Positions 26,289 through 52,735 of a stretch of DNA of 64,000 bases are shown piece after piece. The stretch covers positions 19,344,001 to 19,408,000 of the forward strand of contig NW_026889763.1 of the NCBI RefSeq assembly GCF_033153115.1. Reading direction: 5' to 3'. Below the pieces are notes generated by a model. The model saw nothing but the letters and a program-made list of their open reading frames with translations. It did not search any database and was not told where the DNA came from. This DNA comes from Saccostrea echinata (lineage: Eukaryota). Each line of letters starts with the position of its first letter. Positions within the stretch are counted from its first letter, which is position 1. Both the position numbers and the translations under genes were made by a program.

Positions 26289-27429
26289 ATGGCTGAGAGC
26301 AGTGGTTTTTACATGACATTACCCAGTGATAGCTCCGTGCAATCTTTTCCGGGGAATACGACCGCTCAATTTAAAACTTTATTACCACATTCTGTGGATT
26401 TAACGGATGGTCAATGGGAAGTAGCATTAACCGAAATGATCTATCCTTGTAGTATAGAAAATATGTCATGATGAATCTTATATCGATGTGTGTATAGTGG
26501 AAAAAGTTCCACCTTTTTTTAAAGACGTTTCACCAACAGAGAAACTGGATCTCGAGGACCCCGATAAGTACCAGTGGGGACGGTTTCAATTATTGAAAAG
26601 TACTCCCATCACTTTTCAACAAACCCAGCTTTTAGTACATTGGAGTAAAGCTTATTGGTTAAGCGGTACTTATGATCCTAGAGAGAAATTGAATTTGTAT
26701 CGACTTCGATTTAGATCGGGACCTTATCCCAACCCTACAGGTATCCTGGCAGAAATCAATGAAGGTTTAGTACAGACCATGAAAAAAATCTGGAAAAAGT
26801 ATCACAAATGGACCAAGAAAAAGAAACCCACAGATCAAGGAAGTGTGATGGTGGTGGACAGTGATGATGATGAGGTGTATGGGGATTTAAAACAGAGCTT
26901 AAAGACAGTGATACAAGACCTGAAAGAAGAAGAAGAAAAACCCTCAAAAATTGAGATGAAATTTAATTATCGGGAGGATTTCAATCGAGTGAATTATGTC
27001 ACTCATTTACGTCAAATTCCCATCTTTGTACGTCTTCCCTTAAGTCTGGCTTATAAAATAGGATTTCATGGTTCTAAATTAGTCCCGGAAAATTGGACAG
27101 AAGACACGACCAAATGGATTAACATCAGTTATCTGGCTCCAGACACTGTAGATTTATATCGAAATTTAAAATCCATGTATGTGTATTGTGATCTGATTCA
27201 ACCCCAGACCGTAGTATCGAATGCCTTGAAATTATTAAGAGTGGTCCCTTGTCAATTTGAACAGAAAGACAGTCAATATAAATGGGAACCCATACGTGCG
27301 GAATATCTCCCTTTGAGTAAAAAACATTTTGATACCATTGAGATACACATCATGACACCTTTAGGAAAACCCATGCCCTTTTTAAGTGGAAAAACTCTAG
27401 TCAAACTTCATTTTAGAAAAGTGTACTGA
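26289..27429 (+). pseudogene. Minor capsid (penton-like, PX) protein
   Basis: N-terminal FYMTLPSDSS..FPGNT..WEVALTE and C-terminal MYVYCDLI..LLRVVP..TIEIHI..VKLHF. Stop at 26469. Confidence 0.85.
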
Positions 27430-27557
27430 GATGAGTGTACAATTATTGTGTTACATCCTATTGGGAGTCATGGCTTGTCTATATTGCATTCACCCCTAAG
27501 GGTATAAAAGGAAGTCCCCAGAATGCAGGAAAGTCAGTTTTAAGAACAGTTATCACC

Positions 27558-28076
27558 ATGCAGTATCATCCAGGAATATTAAGACAGAGAGGACACGGTT
27601 GGACTTATCATAAAGGTTTATTAAGACAAAAAGGACACGGGTTTGGTCTTTTAGCTCCAGTGTTAAAATTAGCAGCTCCAGTAGTCAGTAATCTATTAGG
27701 TGGAATATTTGGAGGGGGTCAACAGCAACCACCCCCACCCCCACCACCAGCTTATTATTATCCACCCCAAAACTATGAAAGAGGGGAAGGATTTTTTACG
27801 GATTTACTGAAAACGGGAGCTAAACATGCCTTGACCGCTGCTGCTAGAACGGGGTAAGACGTGTTAGAAAATAAGAGATCTTTAAAAGACGCTGTCAAAA
27901 CTCACGGAGTACAAGCCCTGAAAAATACTTCGGGAATGGTGAAACAAAGAATGAATCTAGGAGGTAGTAAGAAAAAAAGAAAACAGACAGAAAGAGTTCT
28001 GTTGGCTAAGGAGGTCCTAAGAGAAAAAGAAAAAATCAAGGAGGCAATATTCCCAAGAAGAAAACACGGTCTTTGA
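27558..28076 (+). pseudogene. Basic core/membrane-active precursor-like protein with repeated (Q/E)-(R/K)-G-x-G motifs
   Basis: QRGHG, QKGHG and ERGEG, two of them followed by amphipathic helices. Premature TAA at 27855; lies directly upstream of the major capsid gene. Confidence 0.65.
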
Positions 28077-28114
28077 CTGACACTATGAAAAATCAATCTT
28101 AGTAGACATACATC

Positions 28115-29520
28115 ATGTTACAGCCCGATTCCTGTGCCTGTGGGATGGACAATTTTCAATTGTTCCAAGTCCCTCCGACTAATATTGCTTTAGAAGACTC
28201 CAAATGGGAAGAATATTACCCTATTTCTAGTACTTTAGATTCAGAGACAGCTCCGATTGAATTTGAAATTAAAGGACAAGGAGATCAATATCTGGATTTA
28301 TCTCAAGCTTATCTTCAAATGGTATGTCAATTTGTCCAAAATGATGGAAGTAATCTGGCTGGAGATCCTGCTAAAACAGCCCCAGTGAATAATATCTTAC
28401 ATTCCTTGTTTACGGAAATTGATGTCAGTCTCATTGGAAAAATAATCACTCCAGGAACCGATACTTATCCTTACAAAGTTTATCTGGAGAAATTACTGTC
28501 TTACAAACCCAGAACTTTAGCCACACAAATGAAAGCTTGTAGTCTATGGGAAAAAGATACGGCAGGACATATGGATGAAAGGGGGTTAGCAGCTCTTGAT
28601 GTGGCTGCTAATCAGACATTTAATGTATCCAACGCTAATACTGTGACCATTAACAAACCCATCATCCCAGCGTACCCAGCCAATTCTAAAAACGAAGGAT
28701 ACAGAAAACGTCATGAAGCCATAAATGCTAGTAAGAAAATTACTTTGTTGGATCGTTTACATCTGGATTTGTTTCAACAAGATCGATTTCTACCGAATAG
28801 AATCGACGTCCGTTTGAGATTTAATCGAGCTAGACCTGATTTCTACATGATGACGGCTCAAGCCAATACGGGAAAAGTCAAAATATTAAGTATTGTCTTG
28901 TGGGTGAGAAAAGTGAAACCTTCCCCTACTTTAATGAATCAGATCAATGAAAGTTTGAATACTCACAGAGCCAAATATCCATTAAGAAGAGTCGAAGTCA
29001 AAACTTTTACCATACCTACAGGAACTCAATCTAAGATTACCGATCATCTGTTTCAAGGCCAGATGCCTAAACGTCTCATTTTAGGGTTTGTGGAGAATGC
29101 TGCTTTTAATGGAGATAAAACTAAAAATCCCTTAATTTTCAAAATTTTGGGATTAAAAAATTAGATGTTAGTATCAATGGAGAGACCATGATGACTCGTT
29201 GTTTCGAACCTAATTTTAATGAAGATTTATATCTGAGATCTTATCTGAGTATGTATCAAGCTTTGGGAAAATTAGGAGAAGATTGGGCTCCGGACATCAC
29301 CTTAGAAGAGTATAAAAACGGATACACTTTATGGGGCTGGGATTTCACTAAAGATCAAGAAGCCTAATCGGATAAATTCCATCTCATAGAAACAGGAAAT
29401 TTAAGAGTAGAAGTCCAATTTACTGCCAATACGGTTACCACTTTAAATTGTGTGGTGTATACAGAATTTGATAACATCTTAGAAATCAACAAACACAGAG
29501 AAGTGAGCATTGATTATTAA
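28115..29520 (+). pseudogene. Major capsid protein (double jelly-roll, PY)
   Basis: LFQVPPTN, PIEFEI..YLDLS, PVNNILHSLF, YPYKVYLEKLL, LHLDLFQQDRFL, AKYPLRRVEVK, GQMPKRLILGFV. Frameshift at about 29130, stop at 29365, C-terminus [17 protein letters not shown]. Confidence 0.92.
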
Positions 29521-30023
29521 TGGATATAGGACAGTTGAGAGAAGTGTTATCTAGAGAATAAAAGAGTTCGTTTGGTGGAGTGTATCCTTTAGATTTATTA
29601 CCAGATCAATTAAAATTTGGAGAAAAAGCCATTGTAGTCAATACAGATCCTCAAGATCAACCTGGAGAACATTGGGTGTGTTTATATGTAAGCAGTCCAG
29701 TGGTAGAATATTTTGATTCCTATGGATTTCCTCCTTTAAAGAAAGAAATTCAAGACCTTATCCATCGTCATGGTCATCAATGGATTTATAATCCGTATCG
29801 ATATCAAGATTGGAATACTGATGTGTGTGGACAATATTGTGTGTATTATTTACATCAAAGACATATGAATAAAATCAAAGCAGATGAATGGTTATTTCCC
29901 TTTGAGCATAATACAGCTTTACAAAGAGATCATTATGTAGCTCAATGGTTTAAAGACACTTATCATAAAAGACCAACAGGTCATGGACAAACTTGTCAAT
30001 GTTTCTATCAAAATGTATTGTAA
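29520..30023 (+). pseudogene. Adenain/Ulp1-like cysteine maturation protease
   Basis: VNTD..PGEHWV, EYFDSYG and YQ....DVCGQYC (His-Asp-Gln-Cys). ATG 29520 is followed by an in-frame TAA at 29559. Confidence 0.92.
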
Positions 30024-30442
30024 AAATTGTTATTGTTGTTTTTATTGTTGTTTGTTTGTTGTTCTCAAAATAAAAAAAAAGAAAAAAATAATACTTGCTG
30101 TTATTCTTTCAATACGTAGAGGACTGATGACGTCACAATGAGTAGCATTTTTTCTACTGACTTGCTGTCTGTTATAAGTGTTCTATGTGATAATAAAAAT
30201 CATTATGTGTTAATAATATCTTCATAAAAATAAGAGTTCTATGTTAATAAAATGATTATGTGTAAAATAAAAAAATGAAAATTAAATTAAAAAAAAAAAT
30301 TAAAATATCTACAAAAAAAAAAAATAACAGTGACCTGGTGTTATTAGACGTTTCTATAACCAGATGTTTTTTAAAAGGTATCTTTTCGAATCATTGAAGT
30401 GGCCCTTAAAAGGACCGTTGTTGTTTTTTTTTTCTTTAGGGT

Positions 30443-31098
30443 TTACTCCCTGGGACGTCGGCCTCGCCCTCGACCCGCAAACTCCCTTCTCTCGGAGAGA
30501 GGCCTCCTAGGTGGAGGAGGAGGTGGTGATGTGGGAGGGGCAGGAACCGGTTCAGGCGCACCATACCTGCACAGGGGGCAGCCCTCATTCCGGTCAATAC
30601 GTCTGGCCGCACACAGGTAGCAGGCAGGCCTCTGTAAACATCTGCCGCACATGAAATTGGACTGCTCATCCTGACATAAACACAAGACACAGTATCCCTC
30701 CTCCACAGGCGCTTGTATCCCCCACACGGGGATACAACCCTGAAAGACCACACGGTCCTGCTCGGGTGGTGGTGCTGCGTTCAGGAGGCGGTGGACCCTT
30801 GCCGATGGTGACGAAGGGGGGGGGATTCCGGGGAATCCGCCAGGTCGAAATTCCGTCCCTCCTCTTCTGGCCGCGGATGGTATATTGTCCTGTAATCTGG
30901 TGCTGCTGGTCGTGTTCTACTATATGGGCTGTGCCTTGATCTTCTTCGGGTGGTGAAGCCGGCAAGATCAGGGACGCGAATTCTTCCTATATTCAGGACC
31001 GCATACTCTTGCCCGGTGTTTTGGTTCCTTACAATTAACTGACAGATCACCTCCACGCCTGGTTCGATGAAAATATTTTCGTGGAATAAAGAAGCCAT
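30443..31098 (-). pseudogene. GC-rich RING-finger-like accessory protein (about 218 aa if the G-run 30816-30824 gains 1 nt)
   Basis: CVLC..CGRC..CYLC..CPLCR (8 Cys) with Arg-rich and Ser/Pro-rich segments. TATA + TCATT module at 31164/31130. Confidence 0.65.
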
Positions 31099-32600
31099 CG
31101 TCGTATCGCTGAATCAGATAGCTAACGAATGACAGTTAACAGCTGACAAGCGTCGGTATTTATACACACAGCGCGAGCCGAAAAGAGAGCACCCAAAAGC
31201 CCGGATGACGAACAGCTCAAAAAATCATGGAGAATTCAAATTTGTGTTATTCTGTGTTTGTGAATACATCTATTGGAGTAAATAAGTTATTATGGAATGA
31301 TATATACTTTCAAACCCTCCAGTGAAAGAATGAAGGTAAGTTTTGAGGATGATTTCACAGTATTATTCATACATGACATTCCTCCGTTGTTTAGAACAGG
31401 CTCATTCATGTCGAACCGAAGGGCTAACCTTGACTGACCTGAACACATAAAATAAGAAGTTAAGCTATTTTAAAAGTGTGACACAAAGAAAACTTAATGT
31501 ATATAATAAGATTGAACCTAAGGAAAAGTGTTGATATGGTTTTTAAATCAAAAGAATCGTTGCAAGTGGAGAAATAAACTTAGCGTCGGTTTAGGGATAA
31601 AGACAAGGGAGGTCAAAGGACAGCCATTTTCAGAAAATCATTGTATAGACTTGTATAGAGCCTATAAGATTTTTTTTGCAATCCTGATCTTTTATGATAA
31701 AAATTTTGAAATGAATACAATCGGAAACTTATAAAAATCATTTGTATCTACTTTATTTCCAATGGGAAAGTCTACATTTTAAAAGAAAAACCCTATTCAT
31801 ACACGCAGTGTTGGTACAACAGACACCGTGTTACACACATACATTTGATTTTTGTATTGTAACCTTATGAAAATAGAATTGTGAGATCAATACAATCGGA
31901 AACTTATAAAAATCATTTGTATCTACTTTATTTCCAATGGGAAAGTGTAGATTTTATAAAAAGACCAAAAAAATCTCAGCGTCTTAAAAAGGACACAAGA
32001 TGGCGTCATACACTAATTACAATGACGTATTGTAATTCTTTTATTGCATTATTTCTTGAAGACTAACAATTGTTCAAACTGCCAAATTCTCCTTTGAAAT
32101 CTTAATCGATCCGCTACTAGAGCCATCCATTTCACTTTTCCGATCATCGGGGGTGGTAAATCGTAATTTTTTTTATTGAAACTCGTATTAAAAGTCACAC
32201 GCAAAGTTTGATTTTAGATATTAAACTATCATAGCTTTTTTAAGAGTAGGCTTAAGTTAAGTTTTTTTTTGCACAAGGTGTTTTTAAGACTCTTGAATCG
32301 GTGCCAAGATTAGGTACATGACCTGTGCAGGTGTTTTAAGAATCAGATCTCGTGCTCAATATATATTATTATAGTAACAAAAAAAAGTGAAAAAAAAAAT
32401 AGTTTTTCAGACTTGAATCGATGCCAAGATTAAGTACATGATCTGTGCAGGTGTTTTAAGAATCTCATCTCGTGCTTTTTTCTTTTTTTTTTTGCACGAG
32501 ACCCTTAAGTAAAAAAGGTATATAAACTCAGAGTTGAGTCATTTATAGCATCAGTCTTTCAGTGAATACTTGCAGAGAATAGATAGGAAGGACACAAGTA

Positions 32601-33556
32601 ATGATGAATCCTAACGATGTTTCAGAGCAGAATCTTCCAGAACTGATCAGCAGGGAAGATTTTGAATGGATAGTGAATGAGATTAAAGATCCCATTGGAT
32701 TAGATTTGGACATGTATCACATTCCAGAACCCATCACCAAGGAAGATATTTCAGCTGAGAATATTCCAGAACTAATGAGCAAGGAAGATTTGGAATGGAT
32801 AGTGAATGATGTTAAAGATTCTATTGGATTGGATTTAGGGGTCTACCTCATTCCTGAACCCATGACTAAAGAAGAGATGAGGAAAAAAGGTATGTAAACA
32901 CAAGAGTATATAGCATCTGTCTTGAGTTAGTATTTTTTTTTTGGCAGAGAATAGATATAGGACACATGCAATAATAAATCTTCATTATGTTTTCAGATGA
33001 GAATCTTCCAGAACTAATAAGCAAGGAAGATTTAGAATGGTTATTGAATGACGTTAAAGATTCTATTGGATTGGATTTAGGGGTCTACCTCATTCCTGAA
33101 CCCATGACCAAAGAAGAGATGAGGAAAAAAGGTATGTAAACACAAGAGTTCATAGCATCTGTCTTGAGTTAGTATTTTTTTTGGCAGAGAATAGATATAG
33201 GACACATGCAATAATAAATCTTCATTATGTTTTCAGATGAGACTCTTCCAGAACTAATAAGCAAGGAAGATTTAGAATGGTTATTGAATGACGTTAAAGA
33301 AGATCCCATTGAATTGGATTTGGAAATGTATAACATTCCAGAACCCATGACCAAAACAGATATGAGGATCTTGAGGAGTCAAATGAATGACATTGCTAAT
33401 TTACTGGAGGATTTTAAAACAAATAAGGACACCGCAATGTGTTTATTACAGGAAAGATTATCCAGATTAGAAGGACAAGTCACCAACCATGATAGAAAAG
33501 AACATGAGAGGCGGTTCTTACCAGAAAAGAAAAGACTCACCAGCCCTCAAAAATGA
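32601..33556 (+). CDS. Spliced acidic-repeat accessory protein (exons 32601-32889, 32997-33131, 33237-33556; 247 aa; may extend to 33800 via a frameshift)
   Basis: Two AG|GTATGT...TTTTCAG| introns (107 and 105 nt), both phase 1 and frame-restoring. Four LPELISKEDLEW..DLxxYxIPEPMTKE repeats. Confidence 0.75.
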
Positions 33557-34102
33557 GTGTATAGAGGATCAACACTTAGTGAAAACTCAGGACAAAAAGA
33601 CCCAGAAACAAAAAAAGACTGAGGAACAAAAAAAGACTCCTTTTGTGATGTTATATGATGTAGAAAAGACTCTTAACACAGTGAGTAACAAAAGAAAACT
33701 TCAGAATAGTGATATAAATGACAAACTGAAAGCGAAAATCCAAAGAAAAGATCTAAAGGATAAAGTGAAAATCCAGAAAAAAATGGACACTTTCTGGTGA
33801 ATTAGTGTTGTGATTATTAGTGTTTTAATATTTTTTTATGAATCATCTATAAATTTTTGAAATCCTTCTCATGTTTTTTTTTTGGTTTTGTACACTCTAG
33901 TGTGTGTAAAAACCTTGGTTTTCAGAAAATAGAGAAACGGTTGTGAATGACATGACGTCATAATGCATAAGTCGGTGTGAATTTGAATCCCTGCCAAGAT
34001 TATGTGTCTGTATGACTGGTGTTTTTTAAAGAATCTCATTATAGTAACAAATAGATAGCTGTGTCGAAAAAAACAACCTCTATATAAGGCTATCAAAGGA
34101 TA

Positions 34103-34359
34103 AGGGTCTATCTATTTTTTTTTTTAGAATTTTAAAATCTATTTTTTAGACCCATCCCAAGTCTATTTTTAGACCCATCCCAGGTCTAGCTATTTTTAGA
34201 CCCATCCCAGGTCTAGCTATTTTTAGACCCATTCCAGGTCTATTTTTAGACCCATCCCAGGTCTATTATTAGACCCATCCCCAGGTCTATTTTTAGAACT
34301 CTGGGGGGGGGGGGAGAGTGCACTCAGTTGACCCGCCCAACTAAACCCTTTATACTACT
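34103..34359 (-). repeat. Polinton right TIR
   Basis: Reverse complement of the left TIR, with about 6 copies of a 24-28-bp unit TCTAAAAATAGACCTGGGATGGG. Confidence 0.95.
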
Positions 34360-45847: not shown

Positions 45848-47008
45848 ATGCCACGCAAGAAGAACTGGCGGGTTGGATTGGCCAAGAAGGGGAACCGGAG
45901 TCGTGCCAGCAGTGACAATAGACTCGTGGATACTAGCCACATAAAAAATAGTACAAAGGACCCAACGATTGACGAAACATTTGACAGACCTTTGAGACTC
46001 GTGGATACTAGCCACGTAAAAAATAGTACTAAGGACCGGGGGGATACTGCCTCCTTAAAAAGAGTACTAGATTTGCCTTCGGGCGCCAGTAACATTGCAA
46101 ATTTGCCTTCGGGCACCAGAAACATCACAAATTTGCCTTCGGGCGCCAGTAACATTGCCAGTTTGCCTTCGGGCACTAGATTATTTGGAACAATTAATCA
46201 AGCAAATAATTTATTTCCAACTTTTTCTCGAGGAGTTCAGTGCACATGTAATGCTTTGATGTCTATCATTTTGCAAAATGCATCCACTACATCAGAACTT
46301 GATGAGGTGCTCTTTGCTGGGGATGATTTATTTAGACTCAGAATTGCAGAATTACAATCAAGTGTTCAATTTGTTTCAAAAATGCTACAATTCCAAGAAC
46401 TTCCCAAGTCTGTTTATGTGCATGACAACCAGTATGAAATAAGCTATTTTGAACAGATCTATGGAACAGTGACTCATATAGATTGGGATCAGTCATGTCA
46501 AAATAATAATTTGAAGGAAGGTATTGAGCTGCTCTTTACAAGATACAATCAAGGATTAATTATAGTTGGAGGAATTTGTTCTGGAATATATGTGGATGAC
46601 AAGAGGTGTCCTGTATTTTTTGATTCACATTCCCATGGAAAAGATGGTCTTTCATGTGCAGATGGCAAGGCTGTAAAAATCACTTTTGGGGATATTGATC
46701 AACTTGTGGACTACATGTTTGCATTTGATCAAAGTTGTAATATATCATTGATAAGCCAGTTTGAGATTCAACCAGTGTCTGTAAAACGAAAAACAAATGT
46801 GTCCATTTGTGAGAGACTTTCCTTAATTGACAAGTACTTTGAGTTCCAAAATAACATGTCTAGATTATGTACTATTTCTGAATCATCACACGGAAATCGA
46901 AATGAATATATGAGAAACTACATGCAAAAAAGGAGGGAAAACTCACTTCCAGAAAAAGTGTCAGAGAAAATCCTGAAACAAAGCTCAAGGAAAGAGAACG
47001 TACATTAA
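45848..47008 (+). pseudogene. Helentron N-terminal part: herpesvirus-tegument-like deubiquitinase (VTD/peptidase C76 type)
   Basis: FSRGVQCTCNAL (catalytic Cys), LDEVLFAGD and FFDSHSHG (Asp-x-His). Splice acceptor TTTTGCAG at 45837 precedes ATG 45848. Frameshift at about 46940 to the Rep-Hel ORF. Confidence 0.8.
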
Positions 47009-47370
47009 AAAGCATGAACAAGGCAAGAAAAAATAAAGAGTTTAAAGAGAAAGAACTTGCTTCCAAAAAAAGTGTCAGAGAAAATCCTGAAACAAAGCTC
47101 AAGGAAAGAGAACGTACATTAAAAAGTATGAACAAGGCAAGACAAAGTAAAGAATTTAAAGAGAAAGAACTTGCTTCCAAAAAAAGTGTCAGAGAAAATC
47201 CTGAAACAAAGCTCAAGGAAAGAGAACGTACATTAAAAAGTATGAACAAGGCAAGACAAAGTGAAGAATTTAAAGAGAAAGAACTTACTTCCAAAAAAAG
47301 TGTCAGAGAAAATCCTGAAACAAAGCTCAAGGAAAGAGAACGTACATTAAAAAGTATGAACAAGGCAAGG
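46945..47370 (+). repeat. 114-bp (38-aa) coding tandem repeat, about 3.7 copies
   Basis: MNKARxxxEFKEKELxSKKSVRENPETKLKERERTLKS repeated. Confidence 0.95.
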
Positions 47371-50300
47371 CTAAATACAGGATTTTGTTTAAAAGAAAGA
47401 GAAGCAAAGAAAATGAAAAGAGACAATGTGCAGCAGCTGGAGAAAGAACGGCTTTGTAAACAACAAAGTAGAAGAAATTATAGAGAAAAAGAAAGAGAGA
47501 GTGAAAGAGTTTCTAAAGCTAAAAGGAGGCTTGATGCAGAATTTACAGACCATGAAAACAAATTATTAAAGAAAAGGTGTCATGGTAATTCGTTGGAAGA
47601 TTGTATAGAGAAATTTCATGAAGAAGTGAAAATTGGTCCAATTTATGTGTGTACATGTTGTCATCAAACTTGGTTTTGGAAAAGTGTTGTGAAGCTAGAT
47701 ACAACTAATCTTAGTGCTAGTAGTAAAAGTATTTGTACTGGATTAAGATCTGTGGATGGTATAGAATGGTTATGTATAACCTGCTGTTCAGCTCTGAAGG
47801 ATGAGAAAATTCCAAAACTTTCTGTTAGAAATGGAATGAAATGGCCTGACCAACCAGATGCTTTGAAATTACACCCACTGGAAGAGAGGTTGATATCTCA
47901 ACGCATACCATTCATGCAAATAAGAGAATTACCTAGAGGAGGTCAAATGTCTGTCAAAGGAAATGTTGTAAATGTCCCAGTTGATATTCAGCCAACTGTA
48001 AATGCCCTTCCACGACAAATAGATGAGCATGTGACTATAGCTGTAAAATTAAAGAAAAGATTATCTCACAAATCGGCATGCTTCACAGAAAATGTTCGTC
48101 CAAATATGGTGATGAGTGCTTTACAGTGGCTTATGAAAAATAGTGAGTTGTATAAAGATTCTGGTTTAGTGATAGACCATTCTTGGAGAGATGAAATTGA
48201 AAAAAGTAAAGAAGAAACAGTACAAGAACTGATAGGTAGTTCAAATGAAAGCGATGATCGTGAATCTGAAGGAAATGATGATGATTTTTGTGAAGTTTCT
48301 TCAAATGATTGTATTCAAGGCAATTCTGATACACTTGTTGATGAAGCAGATATTGATACAAATAAACTCTATGTGTTTGCCCCAGGAGAAAACCAAAAAC
48401 CAATAAGTTTATTTACAGATAAAGATGCAGAATATCTCTGTTTTCCAACAATATTTTGTGGTCACCGCAGAATTGAAAGTGAGGAAAGAGAAGTTCCAGT
48501 ACACTACAGTGATATCGCAAAATGGGAGTTGCGCAGTGTTGATAGACGAGCAGCACAATCTGTACCTAACATCTTTTTTAAATTGAAGAAAATTCAAATT
48601 AAACAGGTTAGTGATAAAGTTAACTTGGCACTTAGAAGATGTAAATCAAAGGGCAAGAAAATCACTGCAGAACAAGTTTTAAATCCAGCAAATGCAGAAA
48701 AAATTGTAAGATTAAATGAAGGGTATTATATATTCAGAACACTTCGAAATTCTCCTGCATATCTTTCATCTAAAAAGAAGGATGTATTTGCCATGATAAG
48801 ACAGTTAGGTCTCCCAACCTGGTTTATTTCTCTGTCATCAGCCGATACCAGATGGCAAGATCTGCTTAAAACATTGGCAACACTAGATGGAAAAACCCTG
48901 TCACAAGAAGAACTAGAGGCCTTGAATTGGAATGAAAAATCAAAACTAGTTAAACAAGATCCAGTAACATGTGCAAGATTCTTTGACAACAGAGTTCAAC
49001 TCTTCATCAATACTGTTCTTAAAAGTCCTCACAATCCTTTAGGTGTTGTCACTGATGTGTTTCGAAGAGTAGAATTCCAAAACAGAGGTTCACCACATAT
49101 TCATATGCTGGTATGGACAAGTGATGCTCCAAAGCACAAAGAAAATAGTAATGAGGAAATTGAAGCTTATGTAGATAAGTATGTCACATGTAGTTTGCAG
49201 GAAAATAATCCTCAAATGGAGCAGCTTGTAGAGCTTCAAGTACATAAACACTCAAAGACTTGCAAAAAAGGCGGTAGATCTGTATGCAGATTTGGATTTC
49301 CATTGCCACCTTTGCCCAAAACCATGCTTCTTGAACCATTGGATGTTGATGTTGAGCATTATAGAAAGATATATTCTGATATTCAGAAGAAAATGAATGA
49401 TTACAAAGATGGTTGCAGTTTAGACTATGAGTCCTTCTTAGAGACTATTGTAGAAATGTGTGAGGATGAGTATATAAAATGTATTCGAGCTTCCTTGAAA
49501 GGTCCCAAAATATTTCTGAAGAGAAGTCCATCTGAGATGAGAGTGAATTACTATAATTCATCAGTGTTAAAGGCCTGGAATGCTAACTTAGATATTCAGT
49601 TTGTACTTGATCCTTATGCATGTGCCACATACATTGTTGCTTATATCAGCAAATCTCAGAGAGGAATCAGTGCAATGCTTGATAAGGCATCTCAAGAAGC
49701 TGCAGAGGGAAATATGGATCTTAAGCGTCAAGTTCGACATATTGGAAACAAGTTCTTAAACTTTGTTGAGGTCAGTGCACAAGAGGCAAGTTACTTGATC
49801 CTTCAGATGCCACTTACACAAGCTACTAGAGAGGTTGTTTTTATAAATACTTCACCACCTGAAGACAGAGTTTTCTTACTCAAACATCAAGATGAATTGA
49901 ATGAGTTACCCAAGGATTCAACTGATATTAAGGCAGACAGTATGATACAAAGATATGCAAGAAGACCAAAACAGCTAGAAAATTGGTGTTTAGCTGATGT
50001 TGTTTCCGAATTGGAAGTAACTTTCCCCAAAGAAATCAGAAAAGATTTACAAGAGGAAGTGAATGATGATAACCCAGAAGATATTTCTGAAGAAACTTTT
50101 TTTACTGATCAGGATGTTTTAGTTCATTTGAAAAATGGGATTAAGATCAGAAGACGAAAAAACAAACGAGTTATTAGATATGTAGGGTACAGCCAAAAAA
50201 CAAATTCTGAACAGTATTACAGAGAAAGAATTCTTCTCTTTCTGCCTTGGAGAAATGAGAATGCTGACCTACTTGGTAGTCATCAAACTTATGAACAGCA

Positions 50301-52735
50301 CTACAGGCAAAAAGCATGTATAATACAAGTTAAGCAAAAGCAGTATGAGCATTTTGTGGATGAATTAGAACAAGCTCGACTTCAAGCTGAAGAAGATCTT
50401 GATAATATGGAGACAGTAGCACCAAATACAGAACATGCTGAGGCAGAGGATGCAGAGATAAGTTCTGAACCATCTGAGGAATTTGTTCATTATGATCCTG
50501 ATACAGTTCAACACAGAGATTTTGATATTGGTCCAGAACTTGGCTTGTCTTCAAAAGTATCTGAAACAGAAATGAGTGCTGTCCGCATTCCTGATGAGCA
50601 GTATTATAAACTTTTGCAATCCCTGAATACTAAGCAGAGAGAATTTTACAATCATGTAACAAACTGGATTCAAATCAGAGATGAACCATTATATGCTTTT
50701 CTAACTGGTGGAGCAGGTGCAGGAAAATCAGTGGTTATTGATGCAATTTTTCAAACATTACACAGAAAACTGTACTCAAAAGAAGGTGAAAACCCAGATG
50801 ATATTAGAATATTACTTTGTGCTCACACTGGAAAAGCTGCATATAACATCAAAGGGACTACTATTGCATCAGCATTTCACAGGAAAATGTATCAAACCCA
50901 GCAACACATGAGTGAAGATGAATTGAACTCATTTAGGACAAAGTACCGTAATTTGTCAGTTGTGATAATTGATGAAATTTCAATGGTAGGAAATAATATG
51001 CTGACATTTATAAATGACAGACTTCAGCAACTTACTGGTAGAAAACAAGATTTTGGTGGTATTAGCATCATAGCTGTTGGTGATTTGTATCAGTTACCAC
51101 CTGTTGGAGACAAATGGATTTTCAAAGACCTTTCTAATCCTGGTCAGAGTTTAGCAAAAAATTTATGGCATGAACATTTTCATATGCATGAACTAACTGA
51201 AATTATGAGACAAAAGGATGACCTCAGATTTGCAGAAATGTTGAATAGACTCCGTGAAAACAAGATGACAGATGAAGATAAAGAACTCATTTATCAACAC
51301 ATCATCAGGCAAGACATGCAAGTCTATCCTAAGGAGGCACCTCATCTGTTTATTGAGAACAAGTTTGTTGATTGTTTTAATAACAATCTAATAGAAAACC
51401 TTTCAACAAATAAAGTAAATGTAAGAGCAGACACAGACGTTTTATCACAGACAAAACTCTCTGCATCAGTGAAATTAAAACTAGTTCAAAACTTGCCTGA
51501 AAACCCAGCATCTACTGGACAATTAAGAACTAACTTGGTTATTGCTGTAGATATGCTCTATGACATATCCGTAAATCTTGATGTTACAGATGGATTGACA
51601 AATGGTGCTTCATGTGTTGTGAAATACATTGAATATCAACAATCGCTATTAAGACCAGCTATAGTATGGGTTCTGTTTGCTGACTCGAACATTGGTATTT
51701 CAAGAAGACATCAATACAGCCATTTGTTTAGCACAAATGTTAATACTACATGGACTCCCATATTTGAAGCAAAAAGAACATTTGTGTATAACAGGAAGAC
51801 CTATGAGAGAATTCAGTTTCCACTCCAACCAGCTGCTGGAAAGACAATCCATAAAGCACAAGGAGCAACTCTTTCAAGTGCAGTCATCAGCTTAGCACAG
51901 ACAAAGCAGCGCAAAATTCCTCATATACATTATGTTGCACTCTCTAGAGTAAGGTCACTTGATGGACTATTCATTCTGGATTTCAATGAAAAAAGTCTTT
52001 CTAAAGATGAAAATGTTGATAAAGAGATGGAAAGATTGAGAGAAAATAGATTGCAGCTCTCATACACACCACTTTACTCTGTATGTAAAGATATTAAATT
52101 TTTGTTCAACAATGCAAGATCTCTACACAAACACTACCTTGATATGAAATCAGAACCAAGTGTTTTAGCTGCAGATGTTATTGGTATAGCTGAATCTTGG
52201 CTTTGTGAATTAGATTCTGATAAATACTTTACTTTGGAGGGTTTTACAATGTTCAGAAATGATGCAAATTCTTCCCAGACCAGATCACATCATGGCATTG
52301 TCATATATCTGAGGAATCAATTACAGTGTGTGACATACAACTCTTTTACTACCAAATCCGTTGAATTTTCCATAATTTCCATTATGGCGTCCAATACTCC
52401 AATACAGTGTGTAGTTTTATATAAGCAACCTTCTTGTACTCTTCAACTTTTTTACGATACGTTGAAGAACAGATTGCTTCCATTTGTTGACAAAGATAAA
52501 AAAAATTGTGATTATGGGAGATTGTAATTTGGATTTGAATACTGGTCAGTATCAGCATTTCCTAAACTTTATGAGAGAAAACTTTGGTTGTGAGCAAGTT
52601 ATAAACAAGATAACCACAAAAAACAAGACACGGTTAGACCTAATATTTACCAACTTTACTGATATACAAACAGATGTTCTCCAGGCTTATTGGTCTGACC
52701 ATAATATAATTTATTGTGCTGCAAATATTACTTAA
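47014..52735 (+). CDS. Helentron Rep (HUH) - PIF1-family helicase - AP-like endonuclease polyprotein; the endonuclease is frameshifted in the A-run at about 52500
   Basis: VEFQNRGSPHIHML, YACATYIVAYISK, GGAGAGKS, IIDEISMV, GDLYQLPPV, TIHKAQGAT and YVALSRV. Endonuclease NARSL, IAESW, IMGDCN, LDLIF and SDH. Confidence 0.95.

Follow-up and report, generated by a model that had tools for sequence, protein, structure and literature searches.

Tandem duplication of a gene's 5' end, TATA box included, as the likely origin of an apparently spliced intron in an oyster Maverick/Polinton accessory gene

Results

Gene content of the locus and its host element

The window analyzed here, that is, the whole stretch of 64,000 nucleotides at C14:19344001-19408000, belongs to a 923-Mb oyster genome assembly, which was also the genome searched for relatives. 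It contains a Maverick/Polinton element, at the right end of which lies the gene under study. The relevant features are all on the plus strand:

16370..34359, +: Maverick/Polinton element of 17,990 bp, with TIR arms, ends, target duplication and polymerase/integrase domains
32290..32470, +: two similar elements of ~60 bp, upstream of the gene and outside the duplicated segment, with a putative promoter role
32518..32625, +: probable source segment of the introns, comprising the TATA box (GGTATATAAA at 32517), the 5' leader, the ATGATG start and the first eight codons
32601..32889, +: coding part of exon 1, with repeats 1 and 2 and a phase-1 end
32890..32996, +: intron 1, probably promoter derived, GTATGT...TTTTCAG, 107 nt; its donor is used in sister-copy contigs
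32997..33131, +: exon 2, which is repeat 3, chimeric and found in the window copy only
33132..33236, +: intron 2, a recent duplicate of intron 1, 105 nt; its acceptor is used in sister-copy contigs
33237..33556, +: exon 3, with repeat 4 and then a long predicted helix (about 33350-33484); the frame is broken near 33480
33489..33800, +: Lys-rich tail, homologous to the parent tail minus its two zinc knuckles; out of frame here, in frame in sisters

The element is bounded by terminal inverted repeats with AGTAGT...ACTACT ends and by a 6-bp target duplication, GTAATC, on both sides; AG...CT ends and 6-bp target duplications are typical of Mavericks/Polintons, and the target duplication of a second element is GAGGTT. 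Using Pfam models, we identified a type B DNA polymerase on two fragments of the element (DNA_pol_B_2, PF03175, 4e-24 and 2.5e-9) and a retrovirus-like integrase (rve, 5.8e-10; Chromo, 4.4e-9), which is one ORF in the sister element L094. Candidates for the packaging ATPase and the protease had weak matches to FtsK (0.003) and to the ASFV S273R protease (0.07), respectively, and searches with the candidate capsid (467 amino acids) gave no match; capsid and protease are presumptive assignments from position. The window copy of the element is decayed, with the polymerase and integrase fragmented and the tail of the gene under study frameshifted. The ~60-bp element recurs upstream of the gene (32290-32350 and 32412-32470) and near both ends of the Maverick (33985-34050 and 16589-16644) and is a possible binding site.

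The left end of the Maverick carries a different small gene (17014-17220, minus strand; 68 amino acids, with two 22-amino-acid WCINGDK repeats), which is likewise preceded by the AAAAGGTATATAAA word. A GC-rich neighbor gene at 30436-31098 (minus strand) has Cys-rich pieces, is homologous to the RING-like ORF of L092 and is broken or spliced here. Outside the Maverick, two adjacent long ORFs of 386 and 1837 amino acids, with 30- and 114-bp repeats (45848-52527, plus strand), are probably another mobile element.

A first-pass annotation, made from the sequence alone, had described the gene as a terminal, spliced viral gene with two near-identical introns, four repeats and a 247-amino-acid spliced frame, and this structure was confirmed by our analysis, with splicing seen in sister copies. 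The two introns carry the splice words named there (GTATGT and TTTTCAG) and are identical at 103 of 105 positions; joining the exons (289, 135 and 320 nt) in phase 1 gives a total of 247 codons, and unspliced read-through meets four stops per intron. The four repeats are 77-95% alike in DNA, with TRF periods of 129 and 242. The suggestion that the Lys-rich ORF is the frameshifted tail of the gene is supported by 7 of the 14 sister loci, which continue in frame from the helix into the tail. As to the repeat number in sister copies, also proposed as a check, the four-repeat, two-intron form was seen only in the window copy, which is a broken one.

An intronless parent family and the likely order of changes

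Whereas no homologue had been named before, we found that the gene is homologous to an intronless oyster family of zinc-knuckle proteins with the same promoter and start. This parent family has at least 150 matches in the genome (all 150 scored of 216 candidates), versus about 14 loci of the intron-bearing lineage; the genome searches scored 40 of 73, 40 of 56 and 150 of 216 candidates. The parent protein contains one DPIGLDLGLY...KED motif (QD-x-GLDLGLY/KED), a long helix (residues 53-103, with a pLDDT of 90-96 in a structure model), two CCHC knuckles (zf-CCHC, 2e-15) and a basic tail. Open parent ORFs share the conserved start MAEAMMN/MAQAMMN with named oyster proteins, all named relatives being from Saccostrea and Crassostrea, and eight more sampled loci have a single motif and no intron word. 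A profile search retrieved distant members with a layout like that of the parent; in two of them, the library proteins P0019 and P0007, the conserved motif is preceded by the words TPTYTPRSPSYNP, which we take to resemble the Pol II CTD. Together, these proteins define a hitherto unnamed oyster family of Maverick accessory genes' products.

The motif-plus-helix core of the derived gene is homologous to that of the parent family; the two CCHC knuckles are absent from the derived last exons. Searching by words for homologues of the derived last exon gave no match, the derived exons had only sub-cutoff matches in Pfam, and a BFVD fold search with the parent model gave none at E <= 0.001, with weak matches to Gag knuckles only. 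In a core-protein tree rooted on the distant relatives, the intron-bearing group (support, 96/90) is sister to L011 (100/100) within the zinc-knuckle group. Since L011 has a single repeat and lacks both the intron and the knuckles, this placement suggests that the likely order of events was loss of the knuckles, doubling of the motif, a single intron gain and further duplication.

Repeat 3 is a chimera, with no differences from repeat 4 and 5 from repeat 2 in its 5' half (first 55 nt) but 1 difference from repeat 2 and 21 from repeat 4 in its 3' half (last 71 nt), which shows that an unequal crossover added an exon and an intron in the window copy. The earlier proposal that the gene grew by exon-intron duplication holds for intron 2, but not for intron 1, for which a duplicate of the TATA box and leader is the probable source, as described below. 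L016 and L017 have expanded in another way, with two repeats in a middle exon that is interrupted by insertions.

The parent gene also occurs in further head-to-head pairs 10-20 kb apart. At C8:742547-759914 (L010, L008, L028 and L029), one 17.4-kb element with the target duplication GAGGTT carries the intron-bearing gene in both of its terminal repeats; these span at least 2.8 kb, and the two are 98% alike. Beside one parent-type gene (L092:5860-9480) lie ORFs with weak matches to RING (0.05), Viral_Rep (0.003) and PP1c_bdg/GADD34-like (9e-5) domains, as well as one that we take to be macro-domain-like and for which Pfam gave no match.

Introns aligned to the promoter and leader

Over their whole length, the introns align with a segment of the gene itself (32518-32625) that spans the TATA word, the leader and the coding start as far as codon 9, with 80 of 98 positions identical and a score of 111.5, compared to a maximum of 59.5 in 500 shuffles. 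In the 37 segments compared, the first six bases read GTATAT in all 22 promoter segments and GTATGT in all 15 introns, and the CAG with which all 15 introns end matches a CAG of the old start region. Conservation of the splice dinucleotides among relatives had been named as a check on the annotation, and indeed GT donors and AG acceptors are present in 15 of 15 introns, as expected of U2-type spliceosomal introns. The T run before the acceptor is longer than 3 in 11 of the 15; such lengthening can reflect mere release from coding. The same TATA-like word is also found 65-84 nt upstream of the ATGs of other genes of the element, and that of the gene under study probably acts as its promoter.

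In a tree of these segments, which included 8 of the 20 fetched parent-side loci, the introns form one clade on a single branch (support, 99/94). The promoter nearest to them is the L038-type variant rather than the gene's own, so that the copied segment may stem from another version of the element and not strictly from the gene itself. Judging origin and splicing in the family together, we consider it likely that each intron is a duplicate of the TATA box, leader and first codons of this gene.

Apparent splicing in sister copies

The intron set comprises 14 loci in about 11 elements, with L008 and L010 being two ends of one element and L014/L015 and L016/L017 near-identical pairs. The 15 introns measure 102-116 nt, fall into all three classes modulo 3 and contain 3-7 read-through stops, yet both exons are open at 7 of the 14 loci. 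At 6 of these 7 loci there is no in-frame ATG in the spacer, which leaves the last exon without its own start.

The exon end was found joined to the acceptor in contigs from three of four probable RNA runs (X1, X2 and X4, from two studies), all from one-intron sisters; the RNA status of X1-X4 is guessed, and the contigs are of low depth. The X4 junction contig carries a GT..AG label. In the genome, 11 of the 12 exact matches to the exon end run into GTATGT and 1 is unrelated, leaving no joined DNA copy. Precise removal, as for a U2-type intron, is thus seen in the sister copies, in contigs of probable RNA runs, where the host spliceosome appears to remove these introns. The junction check proposed with the annotation gave a positive answer for sisters, whose contigs join donor to acceptor; at junction 32889/32997 of the window copy there was no contig among the runs, which contain at most 0.15 of the words. 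The X1/X2 junction contig has one additional base immediately before the donor, placing that spliced RNA out of frame. In X1, X3 and X4 there are also contigs over DNA upstream of the TATA box, and in X3 there is an unspliced intron start.

Joints of high depth at 32814-33304/33307 were rejected as splicing, since the sequence at their loose ends is that of the L038-type variant, which has no intron and also provides the deepest contigs in X2. L038 itself (614-1060) shows an intronless multiplication of the motif, in which the entire N-terminal half is duplicated in frame and knuckles are absent.

Predicted protein function and selection

The derived protein has a multiplied acidic motif, a basic tail and a predicted long helix, and has lost the knuckles. 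An [ST]Q site before the helix, which we take to be an ATM/ATR-type site, is present in 16 of 17 relatives and lost in the intron lineage, the 17 being picked for their N-terminal match from 150 listed library matches with a profile that favored this site. The acidic repeats are reminiscent of VP16 and p53. For acidic activation domains, a rule has been described that takes 39-amino-acid tiles with a charge of <= -9 and at least 7 W, F, Y or L residues, together with a diagonal (PMC10550315, available text). The best oyster repeat tiles have charges of -9 to -10 and 7-9 W/F/Y/L per 39 residues (parent, -6 and 8). Counting tiles within exons, the rule was passed by none of the three window exons and by 1 of 19 derived exon pieces, with many just below the line. 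The repeats are thus like the domains described in that text in being acidic tiles with W, F, Y and L, but unlike them in that the strict rule is passed by a single piece and that the oyster protein has no DNA-binding domain. Given that the repeats lie at the edge of the rule, the acidic activation motif put forward in the first-pass annotation is unsupported so far, and the protein is a plausible but borderline activator. AlphaFold gave a poor model for the derived exon (pLDDT 50). It is possible, though rather doubtful, that the gene product acts as a nuclear regulator, its repeats docking a host cofactor and its helix pairing with itself or with the parent protein.

To look at selection, we compared 9 of the 14 loci, dropping the frameshifted L002 and L014-L017. 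The dN/dS ratio was 0.27-0.38 for the window copy versus each of the 8 others, 0.48-0.92 for other deep pairs and at least 1 for close copies; of three pairs put to Fisher tests, two had P values of 0.001 and 0.002, and the other (L004-L006) had a P value of 0.67. Exon length changes across the nine aligned loci are whole codons. The modest dN/dS pattern fits constraint during element activity followed by drift after insertion.

Discussion

Alternative readings of the spacer

Given that the spacer is a copy of a promoter, it could still act as one, with the downstream part forming a separate tandem gene that has its own start. An in-frame ATG opening onto the last exon is in fact present in 6 of the 15 spacers, including both of the window copy, but there is none at 6 of the 7 open-exon loci; moreover, the TATA word is altered in all 15 spacers, the upstream elements were not copied, and contigs bridge the spacer, joined at its GT and AG, making two genes a very improbable arrangement. 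The history could also be read in reverse, with a 5' intron already present in the upstream GTATAT...CAG segment and the later ones arising by plain multiplication. Although this segment has a GT start and a CAG end in 21 of 22 copies, it contains the conserved start of open parent ORFs and named oyster proteins, other element genes have a TATA-like word at a similar distance, and the leader is unspliced in contigs of X1, X3 and X4, which leaves this history with hardly any credibility.

Somewhat more weight, although still little, is due to neutral decay, in which an accidental duplication occurred in a dying gene lineage and cryptic sites are spliced with no useful protein as a result. The window copy and six other loci are broken, the knuckles are lost, there are about 14 loci compared with at least 150 parent-type matches, dN/dS is near or above 1 between close copies, and one type of spliced contig is out of frame. 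In contrast, the low dN/dS of the deep pairs (0.27-0.38), the whole-codon length changes in the exons of nine aligned loci and the presence of the intron form in about 11 elements, and in both terminal repeats of one of them, argue against mere decay, which we therefore regard as unlikely. Even so, neutral decay leaves the origin of the intron intact.

A proposed route from promoter to intron

We consider it likely that the new intron was born when the 5' end of the gene was duplicated in tandem, and that this also made the protein longer, its multiplied acidic helical motifs being predicted to dock host cofactors. The tree shows an intronless parent, with one motif, the long helix, both CCHC knuckles and the basic tail; tree and alignment show that one lineage then lost the knuckles and doubled the motif. 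Homology shows the copying of a ~240-nt segment, starting at the A run just before the TATA box, to a position behind repeat 2, although the place of this step in the order is a matter of inference. It is possible that a variant copy of the element donated this segment. The change of GTATAT to GTATGT would have produced the donor, the CAG of old codons 7-9 would have become the acceptor, and the copied ATGs would have decayed. The contigs indicate that the new intron came to be spliced, in sister copies. In the window copy, now decayed, the chimeric repeat 3 shows that an unequal crossover added a second exon and intron. The last step is rather doubtful, namely, that the product would be a nuclear regulator oligomerizing via its helix, as an activator or a decoy; without nucleic-acid-binding knuckles of its own, such a protein would act through partners.

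A bolder version of this proposal, which we put forward tentatively, is that a core promoter was turned into an intron by one base, from TATA box to consensus splice donor, so that a stray promoter was silenced and the frame rescued in one step. The exon-intron unit might then have served as a frame-safe cassette that multiplied a host-cofactor-binding motif in a knuckle-less protein regulating the element's own zinc-knuckle family. Given that TATA words of the GTATAT type are one change away from GTATGT, duplications of 5' ends could be a general and overlooked source of introns.

The record of this intron birth is likely to be unusually complete, since one genome contains a parent without introns, an intermediate with one repeat, forms with one and with two introns, the source DNA and junction evidence. 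With these stages and the source DNA at hand, the route from promoter to intron is directly testable with natural segments.

Comparison with known elements and routes of intron gain

Polintons/Mavericks and adintoviruses combine PolB with a retrovirus-like integrase, TIRs and accessory genes close to their ends (Starrett et al. 2021, PMC8502044), and the oyster element is like them in its PolB, integrase, TIRs and terminal accessory gene. A zinc-knuckle or spliced accessory gene, as in the oyster elements, is absent from the Maverick/adintovirus text of that paper available to us, and our literature search retrieved no paper pairing a zinc knuckle with a Maverick/Polinton. Neither did it retrieve a promoter- or TATA-derived intron donor, subscription papers being largely outside its scope; Gao and Lynch 2009 may contain closer cases.

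Gained introns mostly have no identifiable source, according to the available text of two papers (PMC3443670, PMC4974935). Intron gain by tandem duplication is an established route, in which an exonic AGGT segment is duplicated and both splice sites are supplied (PMC3265369, PMC3443670), and in its "imprecise" form coding sequence is added via latent sites inside the duplicate (PMC3443670). As in these cases, duplication supplies both splice sites in the oyster gene. In contrast to them, its intron consists of a core promoter, leader and start codons with both sites in one copy, and its donor is a TATA word plus one change rather than an exonic AGGT. The oyster case differs from the classical AGGT duplication (Rogers), in which the duplicated segment is exonic and coding sequence stays the same, in that the source is mostly promoter and leader and that a repeat was added to the protein.

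The potato RdRp gene resembles the oyster gene in having a recent intron with a source traceable in a tandem duplicate, but most of its signals came from a pre-existing intron (Ma, Lan and Niu 2016, PMC4974935), whereas the oyster parent is intronless. Exon-intron multiplication, as in Arabidopsis TOUCH3 and in Gao and Lynch 2009 (both as cited in PMC4974935), fits oyster intron 2 but leaves intron 1 unexplained. In Polinton-type elements, the sources available to us describe introns in host-captured cargo of nematode Mavericks (bioRxiv 2022.07.12.499685), introners in dinoflagellate elements (PMC12166617) and group I introns (PMC12220804). All of these are of external origin, whereas the oyster intron probably comes from the element's own DNA, and here a Polinton gene appears to use the host spliceosome via a self-made intron.
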